Source: a virus. From it: 10,492 nt of DNA. The notes below the pieces were generated by a model. The model saw nothing but the letters and a program-made list of their open reading frames with translations, did not search any database and was not told where the DNA came from. Where the stretch lies: IMG/VR virus record IMGVR_UViG_3300020029_000002, positions 1 through 10,492 of that record; one strand, given 5' to 3'. The position numbers were made by a program, and so were the translations under genes. Positions within the stretch are counted from its first letter, which is position 1, and each line of letters starts with the position of its first letter. This document shows, piece by piece, positions 1 through 10,492 of the stretch.

Positions 1-84
1 ACCATAGGGGACTATCTTCATTTCGGCCTTGCCATTCTTGGTAAAACCGACTTGAAAACCCTTAAGGGGGTGAAAACATGACAA
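1..84 (-). CDS. VP4: VP4/Rep N-terminal fragment (28 codons) cut by the window edge, redundant with 10372-10455
   Basis: TTG start at 84-82 preceded by GGAGGT. The sequence is identical to the first 84 nt of both full rep genes. It is present only because of the terminal redundancy. Confidence 0.6.
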   Translation of the reverse strand, partial: MSCFHPLKGFQVGFTKNGKAEMKIVPYG

Positions 85-121
85 CTAACTACCTCCAATC
101 GCTACACTCTTAGAGCCGCAA
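1..121. repeat. Terminal direct repeat (left copy), identical to 10372-10492, implying a circular or concatemeric record
   Basis: Comparing 1-121 with 10372-10492 base by base shows no differences. The same sequence also occurs at 5112-5232. Confidence 0.95.
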
Positions 122-153
122 GCTTTTCCGGACTCGGGGCTTGGGTGGTGTCA

Positions 154-190
154 GTGGGAACCAATATATCAAGATAGTATTGGTTCCCAC
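154..190. repeat. 37-nt inverted repeat in the VP2-rep intergenic region (perfect 13-bp arms, 11-nt spacer); candidate cis element such as an origin or recombination site
   Basis: GTGGGAACCAATA (154-166) and TATTGGTTCCCAC (178-190) are exact reverse complements. The spacer TATCAAGATAG is itself partly palindromic (TATC/GATA). No T-tract follows on either strand. The element is identical in unit B. Confidence 0.5.
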
Positions 191-221
191 ACCCTCCACC
201 TGACAGCCTCAGTCGTCAGCC

Positions 222-1202
222 TCAATGACGGCCAGTGCCACCACGAACGGCACCCTTGGCAGAATTCTTACCACCAGTGAAAAAATCACCAATATTTGCT
301 AACCAACCAGAAAGGCCACGATCAGACTGACTACCGGTAAACAAATCACCAAGAGCGCCGGCAGCTTCCCAAAAATTTTCTGGGTAAGCAGACTTAATAT
401 CAAACTGTTGGTCAAATCCAGCTTTTTGTAAATCTTTATTCACCTCGGCATTAAAGGCGGCAATCTCCTTTTGCGTCATAGACTGGATATCATAACCGTA
501 CTTTTGCGCAGCGGCATGAATAGAAGCAGCCACCTTCTGAGCAGCAGCAGACTGATCCGAAGCATACTTGGTACCAGCCAAATGAGCATCCGCGGTGTAC
601 TTCTGAGCCATAGCCTGGATATTAGCAGTATTAAGCTGAGTCTGAGCTTGGAGCTCGGAGGTATACTTGGACATAGCCGTATATTTATCCGCAATGGCCT
701 GATTAGACTGAGCAGAAACACGAGTCGATTCTAGGGAAAGAAGGGAAGAAAGCATAGAACCAAGAAGACCAGAGATAGCGGAATTAGCGCTAGTATCAAC
801 ATTACCCATAGCACCACTCGGAGCGCCCGAAGATGCCGTAGCGCCGGAAGTGACAGCAGCACCACTGCCGCCAGTAACACTAAGAACGGGATTAAGACCA
901 GCCGCAATTAAATCACGAACCTCTCGTTGATGGGCAGTAGAGGACATCCTCTCTTGCCAATCTCTATTTTTTTGGGCCTCTTGACTGTTGTACCGACGCA
1001 TGGTTTCGTACTGCGCTTCCTGCCACTTCCGGAGTTGTTCTGCCTGTTGAGCGCTGGCGGCAGTATTGCTGCCCGCAATACCTTGAAGGGCGCCAGTTAT
1101 AGATCCGGTAGTATTAAGTCGGTATTTATCAAGAGACCCAGGTCTTACAATAGCACCAGGAGAGGCAGTAGTCAAGGCCGACTTAGCCGAATTCATAGCC
1201 AT
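222..1202 (-). CDS. VP2: VP2 minor capsid / DNA pilot protein, unit A (326 aa)
   Basis: ATG at 1202 with GAGGTG 5 nt upstream; TGA at 224-222. It carries the central motif NRDWQERMSSTAHQREVRDLIAAGLNPVL typical of gokushovirus VP2, has an Ala/Gln/Ser-rich composition, and sits directly downstream of VP1. Confidence 0.85.
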   Translation of the reverse strand: MAMNSAKSALTTASPGAIVRPGSLDKYRLNTTGSITGALQGIAGSNTAASAQQAEQLRKWQEAQYETMRRYNSQEAQKNRDWQERMSSTAHQREVRDLIAAGLNPVLSVTGGSGAAVTSGATASSGAPSGAMGNVDTSANSAISGLLGSMLSSLLSLESTRVSAQSNQAIADKYTAMSKYTSELQAQTQLNTANIQAMAQKYTADAHLAGTKYASDQSAAAQKVAASIHAAAQKYGYDIQSMTQKEIAAFNAEVNKDLQKAGFDQQFDIKSAYPENFWEAAGALGDLFTGSQSDRGLSGWLANIGDFFTGGKNSAKGAVRGGTGRH

Positions 1203-1206
1203 AATC

Positions 1207-1341
1207 TCACCTCTTAGTGATGGTCGATAAGGCCAGGGATACTATACATAGGCATAGGCCGAGTAGCCTTACACTGAACGTAGAGGTCGGCAAACATTTG
1301 ATTAGACACAGAACTTGTAACAGCAAGTACGCGATCAACAT
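1207..1341 (-). CDS. Hypothetical overprinted ORF (44 aa, hydrophobic) in an alternative frame of the VP1 3' end, unit A; speculative
   Basis: ATG at 1341-1339 lies 8 nt downstream of GGGAGGA (1356-1350). The product is MLIAYLLLQVLCLIKCLPTSTFSVRLLGLCLCIVSLALSTITKR. The frame is also open, with the same SD and ATG, in unit B. Leu-rich sequence is common in alternative frames here, so confidence is low. Confidence 0.2.
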   Translation of the reverse strand: MLIAYLLLQVLCLIKCLPTSTFSVRLLGLCLCIVSLALSTITKR

Positions 1342-2902
1342 TAGTTTTATCCTCCCGAATCCAAGCATCAGAAAGCTTAGGGAGCTGGGTATACTCGTCG
1401 GCAAGATGCCAGACATCCAAAGAGGCCGGAGCCTTAGAACGCATCTCACCGGCAACACGGGACGGCTTGTAACGGTAATCGGCCCAGGCTTCCTGATAAC
1501 CAAAAACCTCATCATCCTGGGCGGTGCCCTGAGCGTAAATCTCCTTGTTAAGAATAGGCTGCTCACCAATATTGGCAAAGACCGGGAAATAGTAGTCCAG
1601 GCGGTCACGACGAGACCAGAAACGTTCAAGGCCCTGCTGATAGGTATGGTCATAGCGAGCAACCATAACGCCGATCACAAAGCCATGCTCAACAAAGGAT
1701 TTAATAAAGTCGCCGTGGACATCAGTAGTGACACTAAAGGCAGCCGTATCGCCAAGAGGAGTACCATCAGTCTGAGTAGCGGAGTTTTGAACGACCTGAT
1801 TAATATTAACGGGTATACGATTGCCGCCAAGATACTCAGGACGCTGGAGGCGAGCATCGGGAGAAGTAACGCCAAAATGAGACTTAAGGATTTCAATATA
1901 CCGAGTACCTCCTCTAGCGTCTTTCTCATAAAGTTTCTGAACCTGAAAGGCCATGCGCAACTGGTTGATAGTGGCCGCCGTCACAGAACCAGACTGAAGA
2001 GCCCACAGGTTGTCAAAGTACAACGTGCCATCACGAGAAGAACCGGAGGAAAAACGCACACCGGAAGAGATAGAAGTCAAATCAGCACTACTAGACGTAC
2101 CAAAATTCCAAGTTTGAATAACGGAGGAATAATCCACACTACCCGAATCTGCACCAGTTAACCAAGCAGACATAGGAGCCTTAAACTGAGAATGATCGAC
2201 ACGATCAGAAAGAGAAACAACGGGAAGGTTGCCACCCTGGCCGACAGGAATGGTTACATCAGGGCCTTTCTGCGGAGCGGGCAAAGCGGAAGTGAAGTAG
2301 TCATGGAACTTGGCGGCCTTGAAGGGCATACCGCCTTTGACAACATCGGTGATATAGTTGGTGCCATTGGAACCTGCAAGGGTAGCGTCATCCACGGGAA
2401 TATTGAGCGGGTCGGAAAGATTTTCATCACGAAACCACTCGTTCATAATGAGTGCATACGCCCTAAAGGGCAGCGCGTTAACAGAAAGATTGGCGACACC
2501 AGTAGGGATGCCCATGTAATCGGCAATCGAGCCAATAGACCAGCCGCCGGAAGGGGCAGACACCTGGGGGACGGAATACTCGGTGGTGGGAATCCAAGCG
2601 GACTGTGTATTCTCACCCATAAGCTCACGCCAATGCTGCCATACGATACGGTTGGGCACAAAATAAAAATAGGTGTCCAAATAAAGATTATCCATCATAG
2701 GAGTGAGCAGAGTTTGCAGGCGGGCAACCATAGAGGTCTTCAACTGAAAAGTATCGCCGGGAAGAACCTCATCCACATAGAAGGGGATAACGTCTCCAAC
2801 GTTGAAACTGAGTTTAACACTATGGTCACGCCGAAAAGTGCTACGAGCAATATCAAGGTTAGTAGGATTAAGAGCAAATCTTGTATTTTCATTACGAGAC
2901 AA
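1214..2902 (-). CDS. VP1: VP1 major capsid protein, unit A (562 aa)
   Basis: TTG start at 2902-2900 lies 7 nt after GGAGG (2914-2910). The N-terminus FALNPTNLDIARSTFRRDHSVKLSFNVGDVIPFYVDEVLPGDTF and the ~560 aa size match the microvirus F-like/VP1 capsid family. Confidence 0.95.
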   Translation of the reverse strand: MSRNENTRFALNPTNLDIARSTFRRDHSVKLSFNVGDVIPFYVDEVLPGDTFQLKTSMVARLQTLLTPMMDNLYLDTYFYFVPNRIVWQHWRELMGENTQSAWIPTTEYSVPQVSAPSGGWSIGSIADYMGIPTGVANLSVNALPFRAYALIMNEWFRDENLSDPLNIPVDDATLAGSNGTNYITDVVKGGMPFKAAKFHDYFTSALPAPQKGPDVTIPVGQGGNLPVVSLSDRVDHSQFKAPMSAWLTGADSGSVDYSSVIQTWNFGTSSSADLTSISSGVRFSSGSSRDGTLYFDNLWALQSGSVTAATINQLRMAFQVQKLYEKDARGGTRYIEILKSHFGVTSPDARLQRPEYLGGNRIPVNINQVVQNSATQTDGTPLGDTAAFSVTTDVHGDFIKSFVEHGFVIGVMVARYDHTYQQGLERFWSRRDRLDYYFPVFANIGEQPILNKEIYAQGTAQDDEVFGYQEAWADYRYKPSRVAGEMRSKAPASLDVWHLADEYTQLPKLSDAWIREDKTNVDRVLAVTSSVSNQMFADLYVQCKATRPMPMYSIPGLIDHH

Positions 2903-4115: not shown

Positions 4116-5195
4116 TTACAACTCCCTTCTCAAATTTTTTATACGGTTATGGAGCACGCGCTCCTGGGTCTCGAGGATTTCTTCGTAGGTCATGGTGGAC
4201 TGGGCCAGCTTGGCCTTCTTGCCTTCCTCGGCAAAGTGCTTGCGCTTGGCCTTAATCTCAGCCATAAGCTCCGGTTGTTCCAGGTCAAACAGCTTATCGA
4301 AATACTTGGGAGGGCGAATCTTGCGACCGCCATCAGGAGTAGAAATAGAGATTGTGTCATACTCCATGCACTCGGGATGGTCTTCGTACCACCGGCGGCC
4401 AATACCAGGGCGGCGAGACATGTCGACATACTCGGGCTGGATGTTAAACGTCTGGTAGACATCAGCTTCTGGGCCACAAGCCTTTTTCATAACGTACCGG
4501 GCAACGTAAGCACAGGTTTCCCAGTTAACCTGACCAACCAGGACATAGCCGATAGGCTTCCGGATGCAAGGGGTGTCATACTCCCCTTTCTGTTCTACCA
4601 CACTCCAGGCCTTTTGTAAAGCCTCAGAATAGTAATATCGATATCCAACGTCGCCGCGCTGGATATCTTGAACAGGAACAAGGTCATGCAAGTGGAGACC
4701 AAAAACTATTGCATGGTAGTGAGGGCGGAAGGTGGTAGAGCCATACTCACCGCACATGAAATACCGAATATGGTCATCCGGGAAGGCTTTCCGAAGGCGC
4801 TTCCAGAAAAGCTGCATATGACGCTTCTCCAAACTAAGAGACTGCATCGCCTCTCCGGTCTCCGGATCAGCATACCAATGACGAGGGACATGCTCTTCAT
4901 CATAAGTCAAAGTCAGGAAGTAAGCGGAATCGTGATATTCGAGTTCCATCATACAGCGGTTAGCCCATTCACGAGAGCGGGCTATGCGGCAGCCTTCACA
5001 CTTGCCGCAAGGAATTTCAACCCAGTCAAGCCAAGTCTTTTCCGCATAGGCAGAAATCTCAGGAACATCGGACGTACAGATGCGACCTTTTCGCAATTCT
5101 AGGTGATGAACACCATAGGGGACTATCTTCATTTCGGCCTTGCCATTCTTGGTAAAACCGACTTGAAAACCCTTAAGGGGGTGAAAACATGACAA
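4116..5195 (-). CDS. VP4: VP4 replication initiation protein (HUH rolling-circle endonuclease), unit A (359 aa)
   Basis: TTG start at 5195 lies 7 nt after GGAGG. RCR motifs are present: FLTLTY (I), RPHYHAIVFG (II, HUH) and YVARYVMKK (III, catalytic Tyr). The N-terminal MSCFHP is typical of microvirus Rep. Confidence 0.95.
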   Translation of the reverse strand: MSCFHPLKGFQVGFTKNGKAEMKIVPYGVHHLELRKGRICTSDVPEISAYAEKTWLDWVEIPCGKCEGCRIARSREWANRCMMELEYHDSAYFLTLTYDEEHVPRHWYADPETGEAMQSLSLEKRHMQLFWKRLRKAFPDDHIRYFMCGEYGSTTFRPHYHAIVFGLHLHDLVPVQDIQRGDVGYRYYYSEALQKAWSVVEQKGEYDTPCIRKPIGYVLVGQVNWETCAYVARYVMKKACGPEADVYQTFNIQPEYVDMSRRPGIGRRWYEDHPECMEYDTISISTPDGGRKIRPPKYFDKLFDLEQPELMAEIKAKRKHFAEEGKKAKLAQSTMTYEEILETQERVLHNRIKNLRREL

Positions 5196-5301
5196 CTAAC
5201 TACCTCCAATCGCTACACTCTTAGAGCCGCAAGCTTTTCCGGACTCGGGGCTTGGGTGGTGTCAGTGGGAACCAATATATCAAGATAGTATTGGTTCCCA
5301 C
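5104..5301. repeat. 198-nt block exactly identical to 10364-10492 plus 122-190 (the junction block of both units)
   Basis: Read by eye with no mismatches. It covers rep codons 1-30, the rep SD and leader, and the whole palindrome. The flanks diverge immediately on both sides. Confidence 0.9.
5265..5301. repeat. 37-nt inverted repeat, unit B copy (identical to 154-190)
   Basis: The arms and spacer are the same as in unit A. The last base of the right arm (5301) is also the last base of the 198-nt identity block. Confidence 0.5.
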
Positions 5302-5327
5302 GACCCTCCAATTTTCAGCCTCAGACG

Positions 5328-6353
5328 TTAACGTTTTTTGCTGGCAGCCTTACCAGACCAAGTATCACCAACAGCACCGGCAATCATCTTAGCATAATCA
5401 AAAATATTATCACCCCAAGGGAGGCCAAGCTGATCAAGAGCTTCGCGACCAGACGCAAGTTCAGGACCAAAAGCCTGCCAAGCATTAGATGGAAAACTTT
5501 CCCTTATATCAAAATCGTGTTTAAAACCAGCTTCTTGCAAATCTTTATTCACAGAAGCGTTAAAAGCAGCAATCTCCTTTTGCGTCATAGACTGGATATC
5601 ATAACCGTACTTTTGCGCAGCGGCATGAATAGAAGCAGCCACCTTCTGAGCAGCAGCAGACTGATCAGAAGCATACTTGGTACCAGCCAAATGAGCATCC
5701 GCGGTGTACTTCTGAGCCATAGCCTGGATGTTAGCAGTATTAAGTTGGGTCTGAGCTTGCAGACCAGCAATATCCTTGGAAGTCTTAGAGGAAAGCTCGG
5801 AAGTATATTTACTCATAGCCGTATACTTATCCGCAATAGCCTGATTAGATTGAGCAGATACACGAGTAGCCTCTAAGGAAAGAAAGGAAGAAAGCAGAGT
5901 ACCAAGAAGACCAGAGATAGCGGAATTAGCGCTAGTATCAACATTACCCATAGCACCACTCGGAGCGCTAGAAGATGCCGAAGCGCCGGAAGTGACAGCA
6001 GCACCGCTGCCGCCAGTAACACTAAGAACGGGATTAAGACCAGCCGCAATTAAATCACGTACCTCTCTCTGATGGGCGGTAGAGCTCATACGCTCCTGCC
6101 AATCACGATTTTTTTGGGCTTCCTCAGAATTGTATTTTCTTGCAATCTGGGATTGCTGCTCCTGCCAGGCCCGCAGCTCCTCCGCCTGTTTGGCGGAGGC
6201 TGCGGAATTCTGGCCGGCGATACCTTGGAGAGCACCAACATAAGAGCCGAACTTATTAGCAGCAGAAGAAGGGGGGGTAGACTGCTGCTTCGCGGAAAGT
6301 TGCTGCTTCGCCTGGGTATATTTAGAGCCAAAAGCCCATTCGCCGAGCGTCAT
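5328..6353 (-). CDS. VP2: VP2 minor capsid / DNA pilot protein, unit B (341 aa)
   Basis: ATG at 6353 lies 9 nt after GGAGG; TAA at 5330-5328. The central region is near-identical to unit A VP2. The N-terminal ~35 aa and C-terminal ~60 aa are unrelated, and there is an 11-aa insertion (SSKTSKDIAGL). Confidence 0.85.
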   Translation of the reverse strand: MTLGEWAFGSKYTQAKQQLSAKQQSTPPSSAANKFGSYVGALQGIAGQNSAASAKQAEELRAWQEQQSQIARKYNSEEAQKNRDWQERMSSTAHQREVRDLIAAGLNPVLSVTGGSGAAVTSGASASSSAPSGAMGNVDTSANSAISGLLGTLLSSFLSLEATRVSAQSNQAIADKYTAMSKYTSELSSKTSKDIAGLQAQTQLNTANIQAMAQKYTADAHLAGTKYASDQSAAAQKVAASIHAAAQKYGYDIQSMTQKEIAAFNASVNKDLQEAGFKHDFDIRESFPSNAWQAFGPELASGREALDQLGLPWGDNIFDYAKMIAGAVGDTWSGKAASKKR

Positions 6354-6357
6354 TATA

Positions 6358-6495
6358 TCATACCTCCTTAGTGGTGGTCAATAAGACCAGGGATAGAATA
6401 CACAGGCATAGGCCGAGTAGCCTTACACTGGATGTAGAGGTCGGCAAACATTTGGTTAGACACAGAACTTGTAACAGCAAGTACGCGATCAACAT
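6358..6495 (-). CDS. Hypothetical overprinted ORF (45 aa, hydrophobic), unit B counterpart of 1207-1341; speculative
   Basis: The GGGAGGA SD and ATG (6495-6493) are the same as in unit A. The product is MLIAYLLLQVLCLTKCLPTSTSSVRLLGLCLCILSLVLLTTTKEV. Confidence 0.2.
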   Translation of the reverse strand: MLIAYLLLQVLCLTKCLPTSTSSVRLLGLCLCILSLVLLTTTKEV

Positions 6496-8020
6496 TAGTT
6501 TTATCCTCCCGAATCCAAGCATCAGAAAGCTTAGGGAGCTGGGTATACTCGTCGGCAAGATGCCAGACATCCAAAGAGGCCGGAGCCTTAGAGCGCATTT
6601 CACCAGCAACACGAGACGGCTTGTAACGGTAGTCGGCCCAGGCTTCTTGGTAGCCAAAAACTTCATTGTCCTGGGCAGTGCCCTGGGCGTAAATCTCCTT
6701 ATTCAGGATAGGCTGCTCACCAATATTGGCGAAAACCGGGAAATAGTAGTCCAAACGGTCACGACGGGACCAAAAACGCTCAAGTCCCTGCTGGTAAGTA
6801 TGGTCATAACGGGCAACCATAATGCCGATCACAAAACCATGCTCCACAAAAGACTTAATAAAATCGCCATGCACATCAGTTGTGACAGAGAAAGCAGCAG
6901 TATCACCAAGAGGAGTACCTTCGGCTTGAGTAGAAGAACTCTGAACGACCTGGTTAATATTGACAGGGATACGATTGCCGCCAAGATACTCAGGGCGCTG
7001 AAGACGAGCGTCAGGACTGGTAACACCGAAGTGAGACTTAAGAATTTCAATGTAACGAGTACCTCCTCTTGCATCCTTTTCATAAAGCTTTTGCACCTGA
7101 AAAGCCATGCGGAGCTGATTGATAGTAGCAGAGGAAACAGAACCGTCATTGATGGCCCAAAGATTAGTAGGAACAAAGGACGAGACATTACCAGGAAGAG
7201 TACTTACATGAGCATTAAGAGCACCAGGTTCAGGAGAAGTACTTTCATTAACGCAAACCACATTATAAGGCATTTCATCAAAAGTCCTAATTTTAAGAGG
7301 AAAAGAAGACAAACCAGAACTTTCGCTAAGAGTTCGAACAGGATAATTCGCACCACCAGACACAGGGATGGTCACATCAGGGCCTTTCTGCGGAGCAGGC
7401 AGCGCGGAAGTGAAGTAGTCGTGGAACTTGGCGGCCTTAAAGGGCATGCCGCCTTTAACAACATCGGTGATATAATTGGTGCCATTGGAACCTGCAAGGG
7501 TAGCATCATCCACAGGGATATTGAGCGGATCGGAAAGGTTTTCGTCACGAAACCACTCGTTCATAATAAGGGCGTAGGCACGGAAGGGGAGGGCGTTAAC
7601 AGAGAGGTTAGCAACACCAGTAGGGATGCCCATATAGTCGGCAATGGAACCAATAGACCAGCCACCAGAGGGCGCAGTTACCTGAGGGACAGAGTACTCA
7701 GTCTTGGGAATCCAAGCGGACTGTGTATTCTCACCCATCAGCTCACGCCAATGCTGCCAGACAATACGGTTAGGCACGAAGTAAAAATAAGTGTCCAGGT
7801 AAAGATTGTCCATCATGGGAGTGAGCAGCGTTTGGAGGCGGGCCACCATAGAAGTCTTCAACTGGAAAGTGTCTCCAGGTAAAACTTCATCGACATAGAA
7901 GGGGATAACGTCTCCGACGTTGAAACTGAGTTTAACGCTATGGTCACGCCGAAAAGTACTACGAGCAATGTCAAGGTTAGTAGGATTAAGAGCAAATCTT
8001 GTATTTTCATTACGAGACAA
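6368..8020 (-). CDS. VP1: VP1 major capsid protein, unit B (550 aa from the conserved TTG)
   Basis: The ORF track extends to GTG 8092. The TTG at 8020-8018 behind GGAGGT, homologous to the unit A start, is the supported start. The protein is nearly identical to unit A except for residues ~221-296. Confidence 0.93.
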   Translation of the reverse strand: MSRNENTRFALNPTNLDIARSTFRRDHSVKLSFNVGDVIPFYVDEVLPGDTFQLKTSMVARLQTLLTPMMDNLYLDTYFYFVPNRIVWQHWRELMGENTQSAWIPKTEYSVPQVTAPSGGWSIGSIADYMGIPTGVANLSVNALPFRAYALIMNEWFRDENLSDPLNIPVDDATLAGSNGTNYITDVVKGGMPFKAAKFHDYFTSALPAPQKGPDVTIPVSGGANYPVRTLSESSGLSSFPLKIRTFDEMPYNVVCVNESTSPEPGALNAHVSTLPGNVSSFVPTNLWAINDGSVSSATINQLRMAFQVQKLYEKDARGGTRYIEILKSHFGVTSPDARLQRPEYLGGNRIPVNINQVVQSSSTQAEGTPLGDTAAFSVTTDVHGDFIKSFVEHGFVIGIMVARYDHTYQQGLERFWSRRDRLDYYFPVFANIGEQPILNKEIYAQGTAQDNEVFGYQEAWADYRYKPSRVAGEMRSKAPASLDVWHLADEYTQLPKLSDAWIREDKTNVDRVLAVTSSVSNQMFADLYIQCKATRPMPVYSIPGLIDHH

Positions 8021-8945: not shown

Positions 8946-9007
8946 TTTTATCATCCTCCAAAAAACCAGAAATTTCAATCAAACGGATTTGAAGCTCCAA
9001 GGCCATC

Positions 9008-9098
9008 AACTGGTAAAAATAAACTAGTAAAAATCGAGGACACAAACTGGTAAAAATAAACTAGTAAAAATCGAGGCCAGAAACTAGTAAAAGTCGAG
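9008..9098. repeat. AT-rich tandem repeat: two 37-nt periods (32 nt exact, 9008-9039 = 9045-9076) plus a partial third copy; present only in unit B
   Basis: The sub-motif AACT(G/A)GTAAAA(A/G)T occurs five times, starting at 9008, 9022, 9045, 9059 and 9082. A related AACTCATAAAAAT occurs at 9151 and at 3891 in unit A. Confidence 0.85.
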
Positions 9099-9263
9099 CT
9101 CCGTATAACCAGAAAGTTCAATTAAGCGGATTTGCAACTCCAGGGCAAGGAACTCATAAAAATCAAGCTCCATATCGAGAGAGCGCCAAACTTTGGCGGC
9201 CAGCTCGTAACAGTCGGCATCGAGATTCAACCGGACACAGACGGTAGCACGTTCGTCATTCAC
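9084..9263 (-). CDS. Small acidic hypothetical protein, unit B (59 aa, C-terminus remodelled by the repeat insertion)
   Basis: One residue below the shortest ORF in the track. It has the same GTG start and GGAGG as unit A. The product is MNDERATVCVRLNLDADCYELAAKVWRSLDMELDFYEFLALELQIRLIELSGYTELDFY, and the TAG stop (9086-9084) lies inside the first repeat copy. Confidence 0.5.
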   Translation of the reverse strand: MNDERATVCVRLNLDADCYELAAKVWRSLDMELDFYEFLALELQIRLIELSGYTELDFY

Positions 9264-9375: not shown

Positions 9376-10455
9376 TTACAACTCCCTTCTCAAATTTTTT
9401 ATACGATTATGGAGCACGCGCTCCTGGGTCTCGAGGATTTCTTCGTAGGTCATAGTGGACTGGGCCAGCTTGGCCTTCTTGCCTTCCTCGGCAAAGTGCT
9501 TGCGCTTGGCCTTAATCTCAGCCATAAGCTCCGGTTGTTCCAGGTCAAACAGCTTATCGAAATACTTAGGGGGACGAATCTTACGGCCACCATCTGGGGT
9601 GGAGATAGAGATAGTATCATACTCCATGCACTCGGGATGGTCTTCGTACCACCGGCGGCCAATACCAGGGCGGCGAGACATGTCGACATACTCGGGCTGG
9701 ATGTTAAACGTCTGGTAGGCATCGGCCTCGGGGCCAGAGGCTTTCTTGAGGACGTACCGGGCGACGTAAGCGCAGGTTTCCCAGTTAACTTGACCAACCA
9801 AAACATAGCCAATAGGCTTCCGGACGCAAGGGGTGTCATACGCCCCTTTCTGTTCTACCACAGACCAAGCCCGTTGTAAAGACTCCGAGTAAAAATACTG
9901 ATATCCGACATCGCCACGCCGGATATCCTGCACAGGCATCAAGTCATGCAAGTGGAGTCCAAAAACTATTGCATGGTAATGAGGCCGGAAGGTGGTGGAG
10001 CCATACTCACCGCACATAAAATACCGAATATGGTCATCCGGGAAGGCTTTCCGAAGACGCTTCCAGAAAAGCTGCATGTGACGCTTCTCCAAACTAAGTG
10101 ACTGCATCGCCTCTCCGGTCTCCGGATCAGCATACCAATGGCGGGGTACATGTTCTTCATCATAGGTCAAGGTCAAGAAGTAGGCGGAATCGTGATATTC
10201 GAGTTCCATCATACAGCGGTTAGCCCAATCACGAGAGCGGGCTATACGGCAGCCTTCACACTTGCCACAGGGGATTTCAACCCAATCAAGCCAGGTCTTT
10301 TCAGCGTAGGCGGAAATCTCGGGGACATCGGACGTACAAATGCGACCCTTGCGCAGCTCCAAATGATGAACACCATAGGGGACTATCTTCATTTCGGCCT
10401 TGCCATTCTTGGTAAAACCGACTTGAAAACCCTTAAGGGGGTGAAAACATGACAA
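9376..10455 (-). CDS. VP4: VP4 replication initiation protein (HUH Rep), unit B (359 aa)
   Basis: It has the same TTG start, SD and motifs I-III as unit A. Twelve of 359 residues differ from unit A, while many more nucleotide differences are synonymous. Confidence 0.95.
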   Translation of the reverse strand: MSCFHPLKGFQVGFTKNGKAEMKIVPYGVHHLELRKGRICTSDVPEISAYAEKTWLDWVEIPCGKCEGCRIARSRDWANRCMMELEYHDSAYFLTLTYDEEHVPRHWYADPETGEAMQSLSLEKRHMQLFWKRLRKAFPDDHIRYFMCGEYGSTTFRPHYHAIVFGLHLHDLMPVQDIRRGDVGYQYFYSESLQRAWSVVEQKGAYDTPCVRKPIGYVLVGQVNWETCAYVARYVLKKASGPEADAYQTFNIQPEYVDMSRRPGIGRRWYEDHPECMEYDTISISTPDGGRKIRPPKYFDKLFDLEQPELMAEIKAKRKHFAEEGKKAKLAQSTMTYEEILETQERVLHNRIKNLRREL

Positions 10456-10492
10456 CTAACTACCTCCAATCGCTACACTCTTAGAGCCGCAA
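10372..10492. repeat. Terminal direct repeat (right copy), identical to 1-121
   Basis: Exact match to the first 121 nt of the window. Confidence 0.95.

Follow-up and report, generated by a model that had tools for sequence, protein, structure and literature searches.

The window (the whole 10,492-nt stretch of DNA analysed here) holds two distinct gokushovirus genomes joined head to tail in one circle, and the 198-nt blocks at the two junctions are identical. Each block contains a hairpin that is probably the viral-strand origin, a candidate identified from its sequence features. Distance correlations among relatives, rather than formal RDP or GARD tests, support the concentration of natural recombination breakpoints at this hairpin, which is probably a point where these small gut phages swap genome segments. 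The double-length circle itself is probably an assembly artefact, two strains having been stitched together by the assembler. The complete account, in which two co-occurring genomes share an origin hairpin and a recently exchanged cassette within the block, meet at a boundary at the hairpin and appear as a dimer by artefact, is the one that we favor, with somewhat better than even confidence.

Positions 1-121 of the window repeat positions 10372-10492, and closure over this 121-nt terminal overlap yields a 10,371-nt circle. The two genomes, units A and B, account for 5,111 + 5,260 nt of it, are 85% identical, and carry the complete gene set VP4-VP5-VP3-VP1-VP2 twice on the minus strand. A search for a monomer near-identical to either unit gave none: identity to the closest complete relatives does not exceed 88-91%, and to unit B it reaches 95% in one fragment of 3.5 kb. 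Pattern scans for the long rep leader in IMG/VR and in JGI metagenome contigs did not recover the window itself. The window Rep matches PHROG 942, a replication initiation protein. No Rfam family matched across the whole window, and exact-protein look-ups returned no record for the VP2 of unit A or that of unit B. The positions of the features are collected in Table 1.

Table 1. Location of the genes, cassettes, repeats and hairpins in the window.
Feature	Positions	Strand	Remarks
Rep (VP4) gene, unit A	4116..5195	-	359 aa; HUH motif HYHAIVF 4701-4721; tyrosine motif YVARYV 4491-4508
Attachment-site core AGGGGAGTATGACACCCCTT	4568..4587	-	Inside unit A rep, aa 203-210; relatives are integrated in bacterial chromosomes there
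Rep (VP4) TTG start (5195) and codons 1-30	5104..5195	-	Codons 1 to ~20 lie in the population-linked leader cassette
Allele-specific rep leader, "long" allele	5196..5254	-	Contains a 30-nt stretch missing from the "short" allele; SD GGAGG 5203-5207
Decamer TGACACCACC	5255..5264; second copy 144-153	-	Directly 3' of the hairpin
37-nt hairpin	5265..5301	-	13-bp stem, 11-nt loop: GTGGGAACCAATA ctatcttgata TATTGGTTCCCAC; predicted Rep nick G5281/A5280, minus strand
Hairpin, second copy	154..190	-	Loop 167-177
Exact block, copy 1 (junction J1)	5104..5301	-	On the viral (minus) strand, follows the unit B VP2 end and runs into unit A rep
Initial 129 nt of exact block copy 2 (junction J2)	10364..10492	-	Continues at 122-190
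Exact block, copy 2, block positions 9-198	1..190	-	Bases 1-121 are the terminal overlap with 10372-10492
Upstream cassette, allele U1	5302..5590	-	VP2 C-terminal end of unit B and 26-nt spacer; tightly linked haplotype block in relatives
Upstream cassette, allele U2	191..480	-	C-terminal end of unit A VP2; differs from U1 at ~50% of positions
137-nt exact repeat, the second one above 121 nt	1302..1438 = 6456-6592	-	3' part of VP1; a graph with k = 121 would have another shared node here
Rep (VP4) gene, unit B	9376..10455	-	Differs from unit A rep at 91 nt and 12 aa

The sequence-only reading had described positions 5104-5301 as identical to 10364-10492 plus 122-190, and we found this identity to be exact over all 198 nt. 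Because 1-121 repeats 10372-10492, the second copy is one contiguous stretch that runs over the circle closure. The contents announced for the block are also present, namely, the hairpin, a 69-nt leader with its Shine-Dalgarno sequence, and the rep start followed by 30 codons. The 240 nt to the left of the block are indeed strongly divergent between the units, but 28 substitutions (11.7%) were counted there instead of 26; E76D is the sole protein change among them, as had been reported. On the right, the first difference does fall at 5302 versus 191, but it consists of a 1-nt indel followed by 8 shared bases, ACCCTCCA, beyond which the divergence reaches about 30-50%.

The presentation of this block as unique in its degree of identity was overstated. 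Near-identical and divergent tracts alternate along the whole genome pair, and the block is the longest exact repeat in the window but not the sole long one. Only one other repeat exceeds 121 nt, and the next ones measure 113, 109, 102 and 98 nt; besides the block, rep itself contains two mismatch-free runs, of 102 and 113 nt. By simple arithmetic, a 198-nt run would have a probability of ~1e-11 if the divergence were uniform at 14.6%, but the actual divergence is strongly mosaic. We compared run lengths in 257 independent same-clade genome pairs with 80-90% identity. Exact runs of at least 198 nt were present in 16% of these pairs and runs of at least 121 nt in 45%. Runs of at least 198 nt spanning the hairpin were found in only 0.8% of the 257 pairs, and exact runs of at least 121 nt through the hairpin in only 5% of comparable genome pairs.

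Linkage on the two sides of the hairpin was assessed in 36 independent relatives. The distance matrices of the upstream and downstream segments gave a correlation of r = 0.04 (Mantel p = 0.18), versus r values of 0.71-0.91 within the flanks (0.91 between the leader and rep nt 1-92 and 0.71 within the VP2 end), the internal linkage of each of the two segments being tight (r = 0.87-1.0). Along the genome, the left/right distance correlation fell from 0.9 to 0.01 at 5308-5268. Upstream and leader alleles were seen in all four combinations, integrated prophages included. The segments that flank the hairpin thus assort independently, and hairpin-anchored recombination is therefore supported at the population level. 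Other near-zero minima of the correlation occur at about 3787/8904, 2777/7895 and 2437/7555, so the hairpin is one strong boundary and not the sole one. The proposal of a recombination tract anchored at a cis element is partly supported by the contrast between the correlation across the hairpin and those of 0.71-0.91 in its flanks, the identity of the block going beyond what constraint alone would give. Of the parts of the block, only the hairpin is near-invariant among relatives.

Downstream of the hairpin, the leader and rep nt 1 to ~65 are linked in relatives. When the sequences of the window itself were left out, the values for linkage with the leader were 0.95-1.0 at +20 to +120, 0.82 at +140 and 0.07 at +160. 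A second population-level boundary is located near window positions 5135-5140, and the left edge of the block lies ~30 nt beyond it. The long-type block occurs in nine relatives, whereas most others have the short allele, which is 73% identical. Long and short leader alleles come with different Rep N-termini, at residues 2, 11, 12 and 14. Both units of the window share one allele of this cassette, which combines the leader and the 5' end of rep.

Purifying selection might by itself account for the zero divergence, if the whole block were a constrained cis-regulatory or overlapping-function element and recombination played no part. Near-invariance in all relatives, as expected in that case, is seen for the hairpin and for the initial 7 nt of the adjoining decamer. 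However, the other ~150 nt vary freely: mean pairwise distances among relatives are 0.30 for the leader and 0.14 for rep nt 1-92, compared with 0.012 for the hairpin, and the two leader alleles differ by a 30-nt indel. Even the relatives that carry the same, long-type allele differ from the window block at 1-13 positions. Constraint without recombination is thus already contradicted for ~150 of the 198 nt, and we regard it as extremely improbable.

In the mechanism that we propose, the leader and approximately the first 20 rep codons, a cassette of roughly 100-130 nt, would be identical in both genomes as a result of a recent exchange. The VP2-end cassette 5' of the hairpin and the leader/rep-start cassette 3' of it would assort freely. 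The true point of exchange would be inside the invariant hairpin, plausibly at the nick, with the first variable base just outside; this would be why the block ends "exactly at the palindrome". The exchange may proceed by rolling-circle release of hybrids between two origins or by copy-choice at the origin. The near-invariance of the hairpin may reflect a requirement for its recognition by the Rep protein.

The loop of the hairpin, CTATCTTGATA, carries the phiX174 nick-site sequence CTTG^ATA. The 37-nt hairpin and the adjacent 10 nt are nearly invariant in ~36 relatives. The decamer begins with TGACACC, a 7-nt stretch that is invariant across all relatives, and a few of them have a T at position 8 or 10. 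Among 29 aligned relatives, the hairpin is unchanged save for a compensatory A-T to G-C pair in the stem (L005, L031, L086 and L087) and for loop variants that keep TCTTGATA. A relative whose rep is 51% identical (L032) has a wholly different 16-bp stem around ttCTTG|ATAT. Folding of the 246-nt region as DNA gave a z score of -4.1.

Hairpins with CTTG[AT]T in the loop were found on the coding strand of 30 of 44 distant gokushoviruses, versus 2 of 44 for the other strand. Permuted-motif controls yielded a median of 0 genomes and at most 3, leaving out TACTTG, which overlaps the real motif. The 35 hairpins thus collected represent 26 distinct inner stems, and in 33 of them the motif is placed 2-5 nt before the 3' arm. 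Chp2 and SpV4 also carry a hairpin with this loop. By arithmetic on the coordinates, the distance from the hairpin to a downstream rep is 7-860 nt in 20 of 23 distant genomes; the Chp2 hairpin is 358 nt upstream of ORF4. No description of the hairpin was found in the searchable literature, a scope that excludes older subscription papers.

As in origin hairpins, the stem is kept by compensatory change, the loop motif is on the viral strand, and a rep gene with HUH and tyrosine motifs is nearby. In phiX174 the nick falls after CAACTTG, and the motif in the hairpin loop is the annotated phiX174 nick context; we thus predict that Rep nicks the hairpin. The likeness to the phiX174 viral-strand origin (CAACTTG^ATATTAATAAC) comprises the core CTTG^ATA(T) on the viral strand and a cognate Rep with an HUH motif and a YVA[KR]YV double-tyrosine motif. 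The phiX174 origin differs in that it is inside gene A and has no hairpin loop, whereas here the loop is intergenic, on a 13-bp stem that ends 69 nt upstream of rep. When 30-nt and 47-nt phiX174 origin queries were aligned locally to both strands of the window, the highest score was 27; shuffled queries gave scores in the same range, and the top match was not the hairpin. Because the overall similarity to the 30-nt origin is not significant, the link with phiX174 rests on the short nick motif and on comparative conservation.

The hairpin might instead serve as a complementary-strand origin, by allowing primosome or primase entry on single-stranded DNA, or it might be a terminator or a signal for packaging. 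In phiX174, the primosome assembles at a hairpin. Hairpins conserved upstream of Rep in other small microviruses have tentatively been given a complementary-strand role (PMC9865509). The reekeekee- and roodoodooviruses resemble the present case in that a hairpin with a conserved loop and compensatory substitutions in its stem lies between genes, immediately ahead of Rep. Theirs is tentatively linked to synthesis of the complementary strand, and the report on them mentions no nick-site motif (PMC9865509), whereas the loop described here matches the phiX174 nick site. That this motif is the site of nicking by the phiX174 A protein, and that it is specific for the viral strand in the distant genomes, argues against these other roles, which seem unlikely to us. 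An intrinsic (rho-independent) terminator was considered and rejected: the stem is followed by TGACACCACC, with no T-run, and a terminator and promoter scan of 4900-5600 returned nothing at the hairpin or in the leader.

A viral-strand origin at this position would have well-described counterparts. The virion-strand origin hairpin of geminiviruses and circoviruses, with its loop nonanucleotide, is a recombination hot-spot and belongs to a "replication specificity module" (PMC3187698). The analogy drawn earlier with the origin hairpins of other HUH-Rep ssDNA viruses holds: in both cases, the hairpin that adjoins rep has covarying stems and a loop motif that is conserved, a natural recombination boundary falls at the hairpin, and a small module made of origin-proximal sequence and the Rep N-terminus moves as a unit (PMC3187698). 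The gokushoviruses differ by their bacterial host, their Rep family and their loop motif, by nicking and specificity that are predicted only, and by other, equally sharp boundaries in the genome. The pattern in which an origin hairpin is a recombination hot-spot or replication module, established for eukaryotic ssDNA viruses, would thus extend to bacterial microviruses. For phage biology, the useful result is a hairpin with a phiX174-type nick sequence, whose conservation extends across Gokushovirinae to Chp2 and SpV4 and which, in these phages, separates cassettes that assort independently. It provides a precise, testable prediction for a gokushovirus origin so far uncharacterised.

The double length of the circle probably arose in the assembly process. 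The k value of the assembler, inferred from the terminal overlap, is 121, and a relative from IMG sample 3300020041 (L012) also has a terminal overlap of 121 nt. The 198-nt exact repeat present at both junctions is longer than this apparent k; the two genomes would therefore form a figure-of-eight in the assembly graph, output as one double-length circle. The window resembles repeat-mediated chimeric circular contigs by its one-k-mer terminal overlap, by the presence at both junctions of an exact repeat that exceeds k, and by units that are each a full-length genome with monomeric relatives. It differs from them in that the shared node coincides with a functional element. The 25 complete relatives measure 5.06-5.38 kb and are monomers or single prophages, and the exact VP3 of unit A is found on 16 contigs, all of at most 5.3 kb. 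Twenty-five of the 26 hairpin-bearing IMG/VR contigs have one copy of the hairpin, and the remaining one, a chimera, has two inverted copies. No head-to-tail dimer was present in any of these three sets (0/26 hairpin-bearing contigs, 0/25 complete relatives, 0/16 contigs with the unit A VP3). The idea that a crossover in the block made or maintains the dimer is thus not supported, and the assembler node, which the sequence-only reading had offered as an alternative, fits the 121-nt overlap and the 198-nt repeat better.

Some observations fit less readily with an artefact. The contig ends at block positions 9 and 129, where a k = 121 graph has no edge boundary. Because a strict unitig assembler would stop at a node common to two genomes, read pairs may have supported the path through the block. 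The location of that node is somewhat non-random, given the 5% of comparable pairs that share such a run through the hairpin.

The 10.4-kb circle could thus be a genuine heterodimer, either a double-length replicative form or a cointegrate of co-infecting or co-resident phages. Either a crossover within the identical block or a failure to terminate at the origin would have produced it, and rolling-circle replication from one of its two origins to the other would resolve it into monomers. The position of the shared block at the probable origin, where so few pairs share at least 121 nt, is consistent with this possibility, and origin hot-spots in other ssDNA viruses have been explained by replicational release from concatemers (PMC3187698). 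Phages of this clade are temperate, hence two of them can reside in one cell, and in one contig that is ambiguous as a tandem array (L094), attL is followed by a full genome and an intact core, after which a second copy begins. Junction J1, composed of the U1 flank, the block and rep A, is collinear with an independent circular monomer (L001, 93-99% identity), and this arrangement therefore exists in nature. In tandem CTXphi prophages, rolling-circle replication from one origin to the next produces hybrid genomes with breakpoints at the origin; in the present case, by contrast, we found no two different prophages arranged in tandem. The lack of head-to-tail dimers in the three sets argues against a heterodimer. 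Moreover, known Microviridae genomes measure 4.3-6.3 kb (PMC9865509), hence a 10.4-kb strand could not be the genome that is packaged, and an assembly is not normally dominated by an intermediate that is rare in the cell. For a dimer to be made at the origin, the identity need not extend for another 151 nt past the hairpin, whereas a graph node needs a repeat longer than k. We consider a genuine heterodimer to be unlikely. It is quite unlikely that the circle represents, more specifically, an intermediate of modular exchange in a temperate gokushovirus, with identical origins and hybrid monomers released from origin to origin; if true, such an intermediate would account for the population-wide free assortment of the cassettes on either side of the hairpin.

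It may also be that the identity was partly manufactured, slight differences between the strains within the block having been collapsed into one node that was traversed twice. Assemblers are known to collapse low-frequency variants. However, such a collapse would have to be local, because elsewhere the contig keeps the two strains apart and resolves mismatch-free runs of 98-113 nt on both units. In addition, 121-mers must tie each specific flank to 120 nt of the block, which leaves little room for hidden variants. We find this explanation very unlikely.

The fusion of two strains by the assembler, which we regard as probable, makes the window a warning case for genome catalogues, as a "complete and circular" contig that is probably two strains joined at a repeat longer than k. 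Checks for duplicate k-mers would miss it because the units are only 85% identical. IMG/VR contigs of 8-11.5 kb, considered as possible dimers, turned out to be single prophages with bacterial flanks. An attachment site at the palindrome, of the XerCD/dif type or other, was also rejected: the junctions of integrated relatives fall instead at the 20-nt core inside rep, the unit B copy of which, at 9828-9847, reads AGGGGC...

Bases 1-121 of the window are identical to its last 121 bases, so the contig is circular with 10,371 nt and the second copy of the block forms a single contiguous 198-nt segment. Its minus strand encodes two full sets of gokushovirus genes, each arranged rep/VP4-VP5-VP3-VP1-VP2. 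Cutting it at the exact block defined units A (5,111 nt) and B (5,260 nt), which are 85% identical overall and strongly mosaic, with 0-2 mismatches in some 100-nt bins and about 50 in others. The nearest relative of each unit switches every few hundred bases. Between rep and VP5, unit B carries an intergenic insertion of 143 nt that unit A lacks (window 9005-9184), including 2.3 tandem copies of a 37-nt unit at 9008-9092. As this insertion is also found in the relatives L027 and L036 at 99-100% identity, it is a real allele.

The identity of 5104-5301 with 10364-10492 plus 122-190, reported in the sequence-only reading, was confirmed over all 198 nt without a mismatch, and the palindrome, the leader with its Shine-Dalgarno sequence (SD) and rep codons 1-30 were all located in the block. 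Its description of the flanks needed correction. The 240 nt to the left of the block carry 28 substitutions rather than 26, with E76D indeed the sole protein change; on the right, the first difference does fall at 5302/191, but it is a 1-nt indel, with strong divergence beyond.

Positions of the features of the block, the upstream alleles and the integration core
Feature	Window position	Strand	Remark
Hairpin, 37 nt	5301-5265	minus	First element of the block on the viral strand
rep leader, 69 nt	5207-5203 (SD GGAGG)	minus	Second element of the block
rep TTG start	5195	minus	Followed by 30 rep codons within the block
Upstream allele U1	5302 (junction J1)		
Upstream allele U2	191 (junction J2)		
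Integration core, unit A	4568-4587	minus	
Integration core, unit B	9828-9847	minus	

No exact repeat between the units is longer than the block, the next being runs of 137, 113, 109, 102 and 98 nt; rep holds two more mismatch-free runs of over 100 nt. Arithmetic from the mismatch counts gives a 198-nt run a probability of ~1e-11 if divergence is uniform. We assembled and aligned 25 complete relatives, both free circles and integrated prophages, and compared run lengths in 257 independent genome pairs of 80-90% identity. The longest exact run had a median of 112 nt, and it reached at least 121 nt in 45% of the pairs and at least 198 nt in 16%. Exact runs through the hairpin attained these lengths in 5% and only 0.8% of the pairs, respectively. 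Thus, the length of the block is ordinary for this population but its position is not. Relatives with the long type of leader, as in the window, differ from the block at 1-13 positions, indicating that about 150 of its 198 nt are not kept constant by selection. The identity of the units over those ~150 nt reflects recent common descent of the segment.

We aligned the junction region of 29 relatives. The hairpin was invariant except for one stem pair and loop variants retaining TCTTGATA; a compensatory A-T to G-C stem pair was present in L005, L031, L086 and L087. The first 7 of the 10 bases after the hairpin were also invariant. Upstream of it lie discrete, very different alleles, U1 and U2, and downstream two leader alleles, long as in the window or short, without 30 nt. 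The Rep N-terminus is tied to the leader allele, reading xSCFHPLKGFQVGFTK with the long and xACFHPLKGFRIGTTK with the short one. Both upstream alleles were found with both leader alleles (four combinations), including in prophages embedded in bacterial DNA, and the contigs derive from different assemblers, indicating that the pattern is no by-product of a single assembly.

In a genome-wide scan, pairwise-distance matrices were computed for the 200 columns on either side of every position and correlated with each other. Correlations were mostly low (0.1-0.6), consistent with pervasive mosaicism. They dropped from 0.9 within the cassette at the end of VP2 to 0.01-0.03 at 5308-5268, with three further near-zero minima elsewhere in the genome. 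A segment test on 38 junction sequences (36 relatives and the window's two junctions) gave r = 0.71 between two upstream VP2 C-terminal segments, r = 0.04 (Mantel p = 0.18) between the upstream 200 nt and the leader across the hairpin, r = 0.91 between the leader and rep nt 1-92, and r = 0.27 between rep nt 1-92 and 93-330. A fine scan of the cassette edges in 40-nt windows, leaving out the window's own sequences, located the upstream cassette between about -290 and -20 from the hairpin and the start of the downstream one directly after it. Linkage to the leader was still 0.82 in the 40-nt window that starts at +140 (position 5161) but 0.07 in the one at +160 (position 5141), and the block extends ~30 nt past this boundary on its left, to 5104. 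The proposal of a recombination tract anchored at the hairpin is thus supported at the population level, by the value across the hairpin and by the four allele combinations. The linkage of leader and Rep N-terminus resembles the 'replication specificity module' of geminiviruses and circoviruses, in which the Rep N-terminus and origin-proximal sequence lie between hot-spots.

Two observations concern the alleles themselves. In short-leader relatives (e.g. L008, L022), ATA is aligned to the TTG/ATG rep start (window 5190-5200) with no canonical in-frame start just upstream, suggesting that rep starts at an unusual codon or at another site. The C-terminal ~90 aa of VP2 form a hypervariable cassette with discrete alleles (window 5320-5590 and 210-480), a mean pairwise distance of 0.3-0.43 and internal linkage of r = 0.87-0.99; this end of the pilot protein may be linked to host range.

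The hairpin has a 13-bp stem and an 11-nt loop, CTATCTTGATA on the viral strand, and the region folds far more stably than shuffled sequence (z = -4.1). It has no T-run after the stem and was not picked up by a terminator scan. In the phiX174 record, the viral-strand synthesis origin is the A following CAACTTG; the nick motif is the same as in the gokushovirus loop, but the phiX174 origin lies within a gene and outside a hairpin loop, and its overall alignment to the window was not significant. Support for a putative origin is carried by comparative evidence rather than by that alignment. A hairpin with CTTG[AT]T in its loop was found on the coding strand of 30 of 44 gokushoviruses (rep 31-38% identical), versus 2 of 44 on the other strand. 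Permuted-motif controls gave a median of 0 genomes and a maximum of 3, leaving aside TACTTG, which overlaps the real motif. The 35 CTTG[AT]T hairpins have 26 different inner stems; in 33 of these hairpins, 2-5 nt separate the motif from the 3' arm. In L032 (51% rep identity), the stem around ttCTTG|ATAT is unrelated and 16 bp long. The isolates Chp2 and SpV4 also have the hairpin, which in Chp2 is the genome's longest, 358 nt ahead of the rep ORF. The conserved loop motif, covarying stems and recombination hot-spot match virion-strand origin hairpins of geminiviruses and circoviruses, and Rep has both an HUH motif (HYHAIVF) and YVARYV. The hairpin is probably the viral-strand origin, with a predicted nick at CTTG^ATA, although it may instead have a role in complementary-strand priming (PMC9865509). 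The literature that could be searched contained no account of this gokushovirus hairpin; as a lead, the element carried by the block is worthwhile and testable.

The dimer is rather likely to be an assembly artefact. A genuine dimer appears improbable: all 25 complete relatives measure 5.06-5.38 kb, Microviridae genomes span 4.3-6.3 kb (PMC9865509), none of the 16 contigs with the exact VP3 of unit A exceeds 5.3 kb, and related contigs of greater length each consist of one prophage between host flanks. Among IMG/VR contigs with this hairpin, 25 of 26 have one copy and the remaining one has two inverted copies. The 121-nt terminal overlap recurs in L012, from a related IMG sample series, pointing to a k=121 graph in which the 198-nt repeat is unresolvable. 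In favor of a real dimer, a shared node falls at the origin more often than by chance, J1 is collinear with the independent monomer L001, and concatemer release is the accepted explanation of origin hot-spots in other single-stranded DNA viruses (PMC3187698). The remaining probability goes to partial collapse or other assembly effects. The suggestion that the block is the crossover making or maintaining the dimer is not supported, given the monomeric relatives, the 121-nt overlap and the 198-nt repeat. As first put forward, the finding is largely unremarkable, a mosaic population with an assembly node. A second exact repeat of 137 nt in the 3' part of VP1 (1302-1438 = 6456-6592) also exceeds the apparent k and represents a second node, so that unit phasing is not guaranteed and A and B may be mis-phased between it and the block. 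The contig with inverted hairpins (L009, the same as L082; IMGVR_UViG_3300020047_001834, 4971 nt) has the short leader at the copy on the rep-coding strand and the long one in an inverted end segment of ~550 nt, 97% identical to window 4906-5458. The inverted copies mark it as a chimera of a strain mixture, from the same sample series as the 121-nt overlap.

The clade is temperate, with many relatives integrated in bacterial DNA. Genes for an SLH S-layer protein, a MacB/FtsX ABC transporter and HlyD lie in their flanks, and one such contig belongs to a Clostridiales MAG. Comparison of L013-L016, L019, L021, L022, L027-L031, L083, L084, L095 and L106 identified a 20-nt integration core in mid-rep (aa 203-210), AGGGG[A/C]GTATGAC[A/G]CCCCTT. 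The variable positions are C..A in attL, A..G in attR and A..A in free genomes, placing the crossover within the central GTATGAC. Integration interrupts rep between the HUH motif (aa 159) and the catalytic tyrosines (aa 230), and the prophage carries the gene in two parts. The core bears no resemblance to a dif site; published gokushovirus att sites have dif motifs, mostly in non-coding sequence or at the N-terminus of VP4 (PMC7062461).

The core of unit B reads AGGGGC, the host/attL-type left arm, yet phage sequence precedes it; the change gives Rep E205A. AGGGGA was present in 16 of 16 non-integrated relatives checked, and the unit B core may date from a recent stay in the integrated state. 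In L094 (1-5210), an attL junction is followed by a full genome, an intact free-type core and 65 nt of a second rep C-terminal part, reflecting a tandem prophage or else a cycle in the assembly graph that mixes integrated and free forms. L032 (L107) is a prophage with an intact rep in the genome of cultured Oscillibacter sp. PC13 (NZ_FOXE01000003.1). Its borders are formed by an AT-rich palindromic repeat, TTGAACAAAAT...ATTTTGTTCAA, which lies between hairpin and rep, indicating that the att position differs between clades.
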